Below, piece by piece: positions 18,683 through 19,298 of a stretch of DNA of 64,000 nt; position 1 is the first letter of the stretch, and the number at the start of each line of letters is the position of its first letter. The DNA is taken from the NCBI RefSeq assembly GCF_003334315.1, contig NZ_QOWR01000011.1. One strand, written 5' to 3'. The stretch comes from Escherichia coli. GTDB lineage: Bacteria; Pseudomonadota; Gammaproteobacteria; Enterobacterales; Enterobacteriaceae. The position numbers were made by a program, and so were the translations under genes. The notes below the pieces were generated by a model. It saw only the letters and a list, made by a program, of their open reading frames with translations, ran no database searches and was not told the DNA's origin.

Positions 18683-19179
18683 TTTTTATCAAAAAAATCA
18701 TAAAAAATTGACCGGTTAGACTGTTAACAACAACCAGGTTTTCTACTGATATAACTGGTTACATTTAACGCCACGTTCACTCTTTTGCATCAACAAGATA
18801 ACGTGGCTTTTTTTGGTAAGCAGAAAATAAGTCATTAGTGAAAATATCAGTCTGCTAAAAATCGGCGCTAAGAACCATCATTGGCTGTTAAAACATTATT
18901 AAAAATGTCAATGGGTGGTTTTTGTTGTGTAAATGTCATTTATTAAAACAGTATCTGTTTTTAGACTGAAATATCATAAACTTGCAAAGACATCATTTGC
19001 CAAGTAAATAAATATGCTGTGCGCGAACATGCGCAATATGTGATCTGAAGCACGCTTTATCACCAGTGTTTACGCGTTATTTACAGTTTTTCATGATCGA
19101 ACAGGGTTAGCAGAAAAGTCGCAATTGTATGCACTGGAAAAATATTTAAACATTTATTCACCTTTTGGCTACTTATTGT

Positions 19180-19207
19180 TTGAAATCACGGGGGCGCACC
19201 GTATAAT
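19180..19207 (+). promoter_or_regulatory. Candidate sigma70 promoter of atp operon (-35 TTGAAA, 16-nt spacer, -10 TATAAT)
   Basis: Hexamers read directly about 80 nt upstream of atpI. Confidence 0.6.
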
Positions 19208-19298
19208 TTGACCGCTTTTTGATGCTTGACTCTAAGCCTTAAAGAAAGTTTTATACGACACGCGGCATACCTCGAAGGGAGCAGGAGTGAAAAACGTG

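Follow-up and report, generated by a model that had tools for sequence, protein, structure and literature searches.

Introduction

At cydAB, sdhC, nuoA and acs of E. coli, several hundred base pairs of DNA binding global regulators lie in front of one strong sigma-70 promoter, and the promoter region of the ATP synthase (atp) operon is of the same type; its ArcA sites, in particular, are direct repeats spaced by 11 bp, as described genome-wide. The atp region is unlike these promoters in the position of its CRP site, at about −167.5, in the lack of a reported ArcA-dependent change (Park 2013) and in its spacing, which is frozen over ~540 bp in ~60 species. With the H-NS promoter islands (Panyukov and Ozoline 2013) the locus shares AT-richness, dense promoter-like sites and binding of H-NS; such islands, however, mostly accompany horizontally acquired genes, whereas the atp island is found between core housekeeping genes and is conserved in blocks in two families. 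With oriC it has in common a length kept within ~10 bp over hundreds of base pairs and short invariant motifs separated by diverged spacers, although neither a DnaA-box array nor AT-rich 13-mers are present and the conserved DNA adjoins a promoter and is occupied by transcription regulators. Finally, the rRNA-type promoters, in which an UP element is combined with Fis near −71, may have a counterpart in the A/T-rich stretch located 5′ of the atp −35 element and in a Fis-consensus match near −70, even if the Fis-like site is here a single one and not part of an array.

ATP synthase holds a central place in energy metabolism; the reports on the regulation of its operon conflict, some of them pointing to growth rate only and others to ArcA, Fnr or CRP. 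The atp operon is said to be under growth-rate control. Conserved candidate ArcA and Fnr sites have been described 5′ of atp in Enterobacteriaceae (Ravcheev et al. 2007); according to the summary given by the same authors, expression data on atp are in conflict, one older study having found no effect of Fnr or ArcA.

The rsmG–atpI gap is best regarded as the upstream control region of the atp operon, and both the locus and its main sites are largely known already: occupancy by ArcA, CRP and H-NS, dominance of the main promoter (atpIp, hereafter P1) and dependence on crp have all been demonstrated in experiments by others. The comparisons presented here make it likely that the gap combines a multi-factor, spacing-constrained control region for this promoter with the terminator of rsmG. 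The main sites being documented, the analysis mostly confirms what is known; the rigid spacing of many motifs, which we have not seen described for the atp promoter, would be a modest addition to this picture, read from aligned genomes and of interest to specialists in bacterial transcription.

The rsmG–atpI Gap in E. coli

All positions refer to the window, that is, the whole stretch of E. coli DNA analysed (64 kb). Its segment 18600–19350 is 100% identical to strain HS30-1 and 99.9% identical to K-12, whose coordinates correspond to 3,941,739 minus the window position, a conversion confirmed with the published ArcA box sequence. The rsmG (gidB) gene ends at 18682, and the non-coding gap extends for 604 bp up to a GTG at 19287, the older call which gives a longer ORF, or for 616 bp up to the ATG at 19299 annotated as the atpI start in K-12. 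An earlier note, made from the letters of the DNA, had described this gap as long, AT-rich and the largest non-coding interval of the window, and so it is: its GC content is 35.4% (50.9% in the 64-kb window), no other 600-bp stretch of the window is as poor in GC as the one beginning at 18657 (33.3% GC), and among the gaps annotated for this segment in K-12 its 616 bp come before the 606 bp of the dnaA–rpmH gap, which contains ysdD. The multiple A/T tracts noticed at the same time are confirmed by count, there being 12 runs of at least five bases against 2.8 ± 1.5 in mononucleotide shuffles; AA/TT dinucleotides in the gap show no 10–11 bp periodicity, and curvature due to phased A-tracts is therefore unsupported.

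The K-12 annotation carries no feature inside the gap, though ysdD and rbsZ are annotated nearby. A mobile element was considered and ruled out, because the region is single-copy and chromosomal in 5,425 of 5,426 complete E. coli genomes and, in a search of these genomes, never occurs on plasmids; a repeat search of the gap returned short chance pairs and the terminator-like hairpin only, and no repeat family. The features discussed in the following sections are collected in Table 1.

Table 1: Features of the rsmG–atpI gap (window positions; a dot marks features given no strand).
Feature	Position	Strand	Description
Whole rsmG–atpI gap	18683–19298	.	616 bp to ATG; unannotated in E. coli genomes
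GTTAA-type direct repeats	18764–18802	−	11-bp register: GTTAt / GAtgc / GTgAA / GTTAA
Terminator-like hairpin	18770–18814	+	GCCACGUU, 22-nt loop, AACGUGGC, then U7
Block GAAAATATCAGnnnGCTAAAAAT	18840–18862	.	near-invariant; core 18845–18857 IHF-like
ArcA operator	18885–18933	+	published box CTGTTAAAACATTATTAA at 18885–18902, second box-like match at 18916–18933
Block aTATCAnaanGATG	18971–18984	.	IHF-like, one mismatch (18972–84), kept in 38/60 species
CRP site	19039–19058	.	TGTGATCTGAAGCACG at 19039–19054 plus invariant flank CTTT
Block with CRP-like half-site	19079–19105	.	degenerate TTTACAGTTTTTCATGATCGAACAG in E. coli; TTTGCAgTTTTGCAtGATCGtTCACA in most other genera
Fis-like site	19137–19151	.	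GAAAAATATTTAAAC, perfect match to consensus GNNNAWWWWWTNNNC
A/T-rich stretch	19152–19179	.	invariant, directly 5′ of −35, UP-element position
atpIp/P1	19180–19207	+	−35 TTGAAA, 16-bp spacer, −10 TATAAT; 11/12 consensus matches
atpI 5′ leader	19211–19298	+	90–95% identity across ~60 species

The Main Promoter and the atpI Leader

The sigma-70 promoter that the earlier note had recognised in the last 100 bp of the gap is indeed there, with the elements listed in Table 1; P1 is the only site reported by the promoter scan over 18400–19500, is invariant in 62 sequences and, when the scan is averaged over species, comes first among the conserved promoter-like sites. Judged from the −10 element, transcription would start near 19214, in agreement with the major atp start, situated 73 bp ahead of the older atpI start. 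When a terminator was introduced downstream of atpIp and ahead of atpI, the expression of atpI, atpB and atpE reportedly fell to less than 15%, and P1 thus carries most of atp transcription. As to the additional atp promoters which the same note had thought possible further upstream, the region is listed as rich in promoter-like sites, but in the species-averaged scan no conserved canonical promoter stands out besides P1.

The A/T-rich stretch placed like an UP element can also be read, by score, as minus-strand repeats of the ArcA type, three such repeats being located just 5′ of the −35 element. The Fis-consensus match which precedes it is kept in 60 of 60 species and has its centre ~70 bp 5′ of the inferred start; as a consensus match, it is a candidate Fis site. 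A one-mismatch match to the DnaA box (TTATTCACC, 19154–19162) is also found just 5′ of the −35 element of P1 and is conserved in 55 of 60 species.

Downstream of P1, the identity of the atpI leader across species exceeds that of the coding sequence which follows; the leader belongs to no Rfam family, and its fold is no better than that of shuffled sequence. It contains an invariant TTGACT-17-TTTTAT at 19226–19254.

ArcA and CRP Sites

The earlier note assigned no function to the 500 bp upstream of the P1 region; this DNA is not empty, published experiments having already placed ArcA, CRP and H-NS there. The suggestion in the note that it might hold binding sites for nucleoid proteins is borne out, if regulators are counted with these, for ArcA and CRP by ChIP-seq, for CRP also by SELEX and a reporter, for H-NS by the published signal (see below), and by the conserved blocks.

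ArcA binding has been mapped by Park (2013; Tables S1, S3 and S4), where the region “atpI” appears in both ChIP-seq replicates with enrichments of 3.2x and 3.3x; the peak positions convert to window positions 18967 and 18936, and the ArcA box given for the region (ctgttaaaacattattaa, 13 bits) to 18885–18902. A matrix built from 114 published boxes, with the atpI box left out, gives 13.2 bits to this same box, 13.6 bits to 18888–18905 on the opposite strand and 11.4 bits to 18916–18933, so that, of the five highest-scoring matches in the whole window, three fall within 18885–18933. The direct repeats TGTTAA (18886) and TATTAA (18897) are separated by 11 bp centre to centre, as expected of an ArcA operator, and the box is followed by AATGTCAAT (18904–12) and GGTTTT (18917–22), both of them invariant in 60 species. 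Averaged over species, the best single ArcA-type repeats are located at 18885, 18765 (minus strand) and 18721; the minus-strand repeats of 18764–18802, of which TTTAAC (18764–69), T.AC (18777–80) and TAAC (18799–802) are conserved, score 10.0 bits at 18776–18793 and, as far as can be judged from their arrangement, match the direct-repeat layout of ArcA and of other OmpR-family regulators. In the expression tables of the arcA mutant (S5–S8 of Park 2013) the atp operon is missing, atpI and atpB being present in the binding tables only; ArcA binding had therefore no detected effect in the conditions of that study.

The CRP site (TGTGA-TCTGAA-GCACG) has intact GTG and CAC cores at the half-site spacing of a CRP site, includes a conserved GATC, and is kept in 60 of 60 species at up to three mismatches to the consensus. 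CRP usually activates from −41.5, −61.5 … −93.5. The centre of this site, at 19046.5, is instead ~167.5 bp 5′ of the inferred P1 start, far outside the standard activating positions, and downstream of the site the species-averaged scan finds no conserved promoter at the distance expected for class I or class II activation. The TGTGATCTGAAGCACG sequence had been identified under a CRP ChIP-seq peak 5′ of atpI in ETEC H10407 (Haycocks et al. 2015), where it corresponds exactly to 19039–19054; by genomic SELEX, atpI had been added to the known CRP targets, and loss of crp lowered the activity of an atpI-lacZ fusion (Shimada et al. 2011). A sigma-54 reading of TGCACGCTTT, the 3′ part of this block, was dropped on inspection by eye because the GG is missing.

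The block at 19079–19105 has, in its TTTGCAgTTTTGCAtGATCGtTCACA form, TTGCA repeats and a second CRP-like half-site (TCACA in 38 of 62 sequences), 51 bp from the CRP site. The TTGCA repeats placed between two CRP-like sites in other genera recall the layout of CRP-CytR-CRP operators; these elements have decayed in E. coli and in E. albertii.

Further Candidate Sites

In the block at 18840–18862 the core has one mismatch to the IHF consensus WATCARNNNNTTR and is kept in 54 of 60 species; together with 18972–84 it is considered here, by consensus match, a candidate IHF site. A search for published data on IHF or Fis binding at the gap found none. OmpR has been detected at atpI in Salmonella, and a weak ArgR signal was seen at atpI by ChIP-chip, to which ChIP-exo gave no confirmation. 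Consensus scans for a DnaA-box cluster and for FNR, NarL, Lrp, OmpR and PhoP sites returned no further convincing conserved site upstream.

Conservation and Spacing across Species

The locus was retrieved from 80 species by means of RsmG, covering Enterobacteriaceae and Erwiniaceae, and spacing was counted on 62 sequences; homologues of AtpI, searched for separately, came from close Enterobacteriaceae only. In ~60 species of Enterobacteriaceae, belonging to many genera, the gap measures 612–621 bp; one genome has an apparent gap of 597 bp, probably due to a different rsmG stop, and in the four Erwiniaceae the length is 711–816 bp. Compared with E. coli, the sequences show an identity of 0.91 over the promoter and leader (19137–19298) and of only 0.57 at 18683–19136, against 0.60 at the four-fold degenerate sites of the flanking genes; nevertheless, in this upstream part the alignment contains only 0–2 gap positions, so that conservation is concentrated in short blocks. 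In the conservation scan, one of the checks proposed by the earlier note, near-invariant short blocks are held at fixed distances, while the spacers between them have diverged like synonymous sites.

From rsmG towards atpI, the blocks are TTTAAC (18764), TAAC (18799) and GAAAATATCAG...GCTAAAA (18840–60); TGTTAA/TTTATTA/AATGTCAAT/GGTTTT (18886–18922) and TATCA...GATG (18971–84); TGTGATC...TGCACGCTTT (19039–58) and TTTGCA.TTTT (19080–90), nearly everything being conserved from 19137 on. The two strongest upstream blocks coincide exactly with the published ArcA and CRP sites. From the CRP site to the −35 element the distance is 141 bp in 62 of 62 sequences of Enterobacteriaceae and 140–141 bp in Erwiniaceae; from TGTTAA to TGTCAA it is 19 bp, again in 62 of 62 and, in Erwiniaceae, in the two of four sequences in which the pair was found; from TGTCAA to the CRP site it is 133–135 bp in the former family and 145–146 bp in the latter. 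Erwiniaceae thus keep the motifs, with the ArcA block and the CRP site further apart by 11–12 bp, or roughly a turn of the helix. The additional length of their gap is located between the rsmG stop and block GTTACATTTAAC, that is, on the rsmG side, and the conserved unit therefore consists of the ~540 bp attached to atpI.

Length controls were taken from the same genomes. The mnmG–rsmG spacer varies from 53 to 118 bp and the atpE–atpF spacer from 34 to 70 bp; since these neighbouring spacers vary two-fold, insertions and deletions are common nearby and have been specifically excluded from the rsmG–atpI gap. The mioC–mnmG gap containing oriC (~15760–16105), the textbook case of a region under spacing constraint, measures 369–383 bp in Enterobacteriaceae. 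In Erwiniaceae it measures 461–466 bp, the same family-level step in length as that of the rsmG–atpI gap.

A Probable Control Region for P1 and Its Alternatives

In the aligned sequences of ~60 species, the ArcA and CRP sites and several further blocks are held at fixed distances. The reading that we favour, and to which we give considerably more weight than to its alternatives taken singly, is that of a spacing-constrained region in which several factors control P1, preceded by the rsmG terminator. The first ~130 bp of the gap would carry the 3′ end of the rsmG transcript (the hairpin and U-run of 18770–18814 in E. coli), and the ~540 bp from ~18757 to atpI one long upstream control region for P1. 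The factors bound to it would be joined in one bent or looped DNA–protein assembly, possibly with the aid of the IHF-like and Fis-like sites; in such an assembly the distance between bound proteins, and the face of the helix on which they sit, would matter, and P1 would be tuned to carbon source through CRP, to redox state or oxygen through ArcA, and to growth rate through Fis and the UP-like stretch. Against this reading one has to set the missing ArcA effect on expression (Park 2013), the CRP position at about −167.5, the insertions tolerated within the gap, the nature of the IHF and Fis sites, which are consensus matches only, and the lack of A-tract periodicity.

A stronger version of this proposal, which we put forward tentatively and regard as rather doubtful, holds that the ~540 bp 5′ of atpI form a single spacing-locked assembly, which combines ArcA repeats in three separate locations with CRP at about −167.5, IHF-like bends and a Fis-like site, and that geometry, rather than any single site, has been under selection across Enterobacteriaceae and Erwiniaceae. 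Were it true, the region would be a bacterial enhancer-like module serving a sigma-70 housekeeping promoter, and the invariant blocks 18840–62, 18904–22 and 19079–91 would be bound by further factors. If the frozen spacing does reflect a working assembly, cassettes placed at this routine “neutral” integration site may disturb atp control, and nature would have provided, in this locus, a clean case on which to test how a sigma-70 promoter is regulated from a distance and in dependence on helical phase.

The opposite possibility is that the gap is an inert AT-rich spacer, an H-NS-coated promoter island with no job beyond the rsmG terminator and P1. Indeed, atpI/rsmG (3920739_440) is one of the 78 “promoter islands” of Panyukov and Ozoline (2013), where it is marked as H-NS-bound (code K); the name, given in an older numbering, corresponds to window 18584–19023, and the stretch has the properties of its class, being listed, AT-rich (GC 33–35%) and endowed with an H-NS signal. 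Islands of this kind, however, are mostly tied to foreign genes, whereas the present one is core DNA, syntenic in ~60 Enterobacteriaceae and four Erwiniaceae; in Table 1 of that study neither of the island columns, A and B, has an entry for atpI/rsmG, and only one foreign-gene predictor column is marked. An inert spacer would also account for the tolerance of insertions: the gap is a popular integration site, used as neutral, within which a 7-kb cassette has been placed (Kuhlman and Cox), and the porcine strain UMNF18 (3408–5200 of L082) carries an IS91-family transposase and a hypothetical gene at ~19006, in the DNA that separates the ArcA block from the CRP site. Since the strains with the cassette and with the IS91-family insertion are viable, contiguity of the gap is not essential for viability; yet interruptions are rare, a contiguous copy being missing in three of 5,425 E. 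coli genomes with a 751-bp query and in UMNF18 alone with a 471-bp query. Overall divergence close to that of synonymous sites and the lack of a reported ArcA-dependent change in expression would likewise suit a spacer devoid of function; blocks that are invariant in 60 species and stand at exact distances, next to spacers whose length changes two-fold, would not, and neither would the specific occupancy by ArcA and CRP that has been published. On balance we consider an inert spacer unlikely.

Less probable still, and in our opinion very unlikely, is an unannotated gene (a small RNA, an antisense RNA or a small protein) of which the conserved blocks would be the promoter and the functional parts. 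A search against Rfam at a permissive threshold yielded only a chance hit below threshold (RUF1, 21 bits against a gathering score of 70); RNAalifold, applied to 27 genera and 476 columns, gave −4.0 and −2.5 kcal/mol for the two strands, with 0 compensatory pairs and essentially no shared structure. In a search for conserved small ORFs none was conserved in position, frame and peptide: the best-shared stop occurs in 40 of 62 sequences, with starts and peptides that vary, and the remaining ORF signals coincide with conserved DNA motifs. The curated K-12 record being empty here as well, the small transcript or small ORF that the earlier note had thought possible in the gap finds no support, though an unstructured transcript could have escaped these searches. 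What speaks for a hidden gene is the promoter-island label, which implies many potential start sites, and a minus-strand TTGACA-N15-TAACAT (18911 to 18885), conserved in most genera and second best among the promoter-like sites of the species-averaged scan, from which an ArcA-controlled antisense transcript may start; nonetheless a 15-nt spacer suits sigma-70 poorly, the E. coli site is weaker, its −10 element (TAACAG) lacking the final T, and the sequence overlaps the ArcA box.

An array serving replication or the organisation of the origin region rather than atp expression, for instance by sequestering or arranging ArcA, IHF, Fis or SeqA, is suggested by the distance of ~2.7 kb from oriC, by the GATC in the CRP site and the ArcA, IHF-like and Fis-like motifs, and by a pattern of invariant short motifs, fixed distances, free spacers and constant length like that of the oriC gap, but appears highly improbable given that there is no conserved DnaA-box cluster (the one match, with one mismatch, lies inside the promoter region), that the conserved unit stays with atpI and not with rsmG in Erwiniaceae, and that CRP-dependent activity of the atpI promoter has been reported.

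The rsmG 3′ End

The spacing-constrained control region favoured here would begin where the rsmG transcript ends, and at this end of the gap the hairpin of 18770–18814 looks like the rsmG terminator of E. coli: its stem of 8 bp has a fold energy of −15 kcal/mol (z = −2.7). It was found as an inverted repeat (I3) and missed by the terminator scan because of its long loop (22 nt); other genera have not kept the arms. Directly 3′ of the rsmG stop, AATTTTTATCAAAAAA (18681–18697) is conserved in most Enterobacteriaceae and may be part of the rsmG 3′ end.
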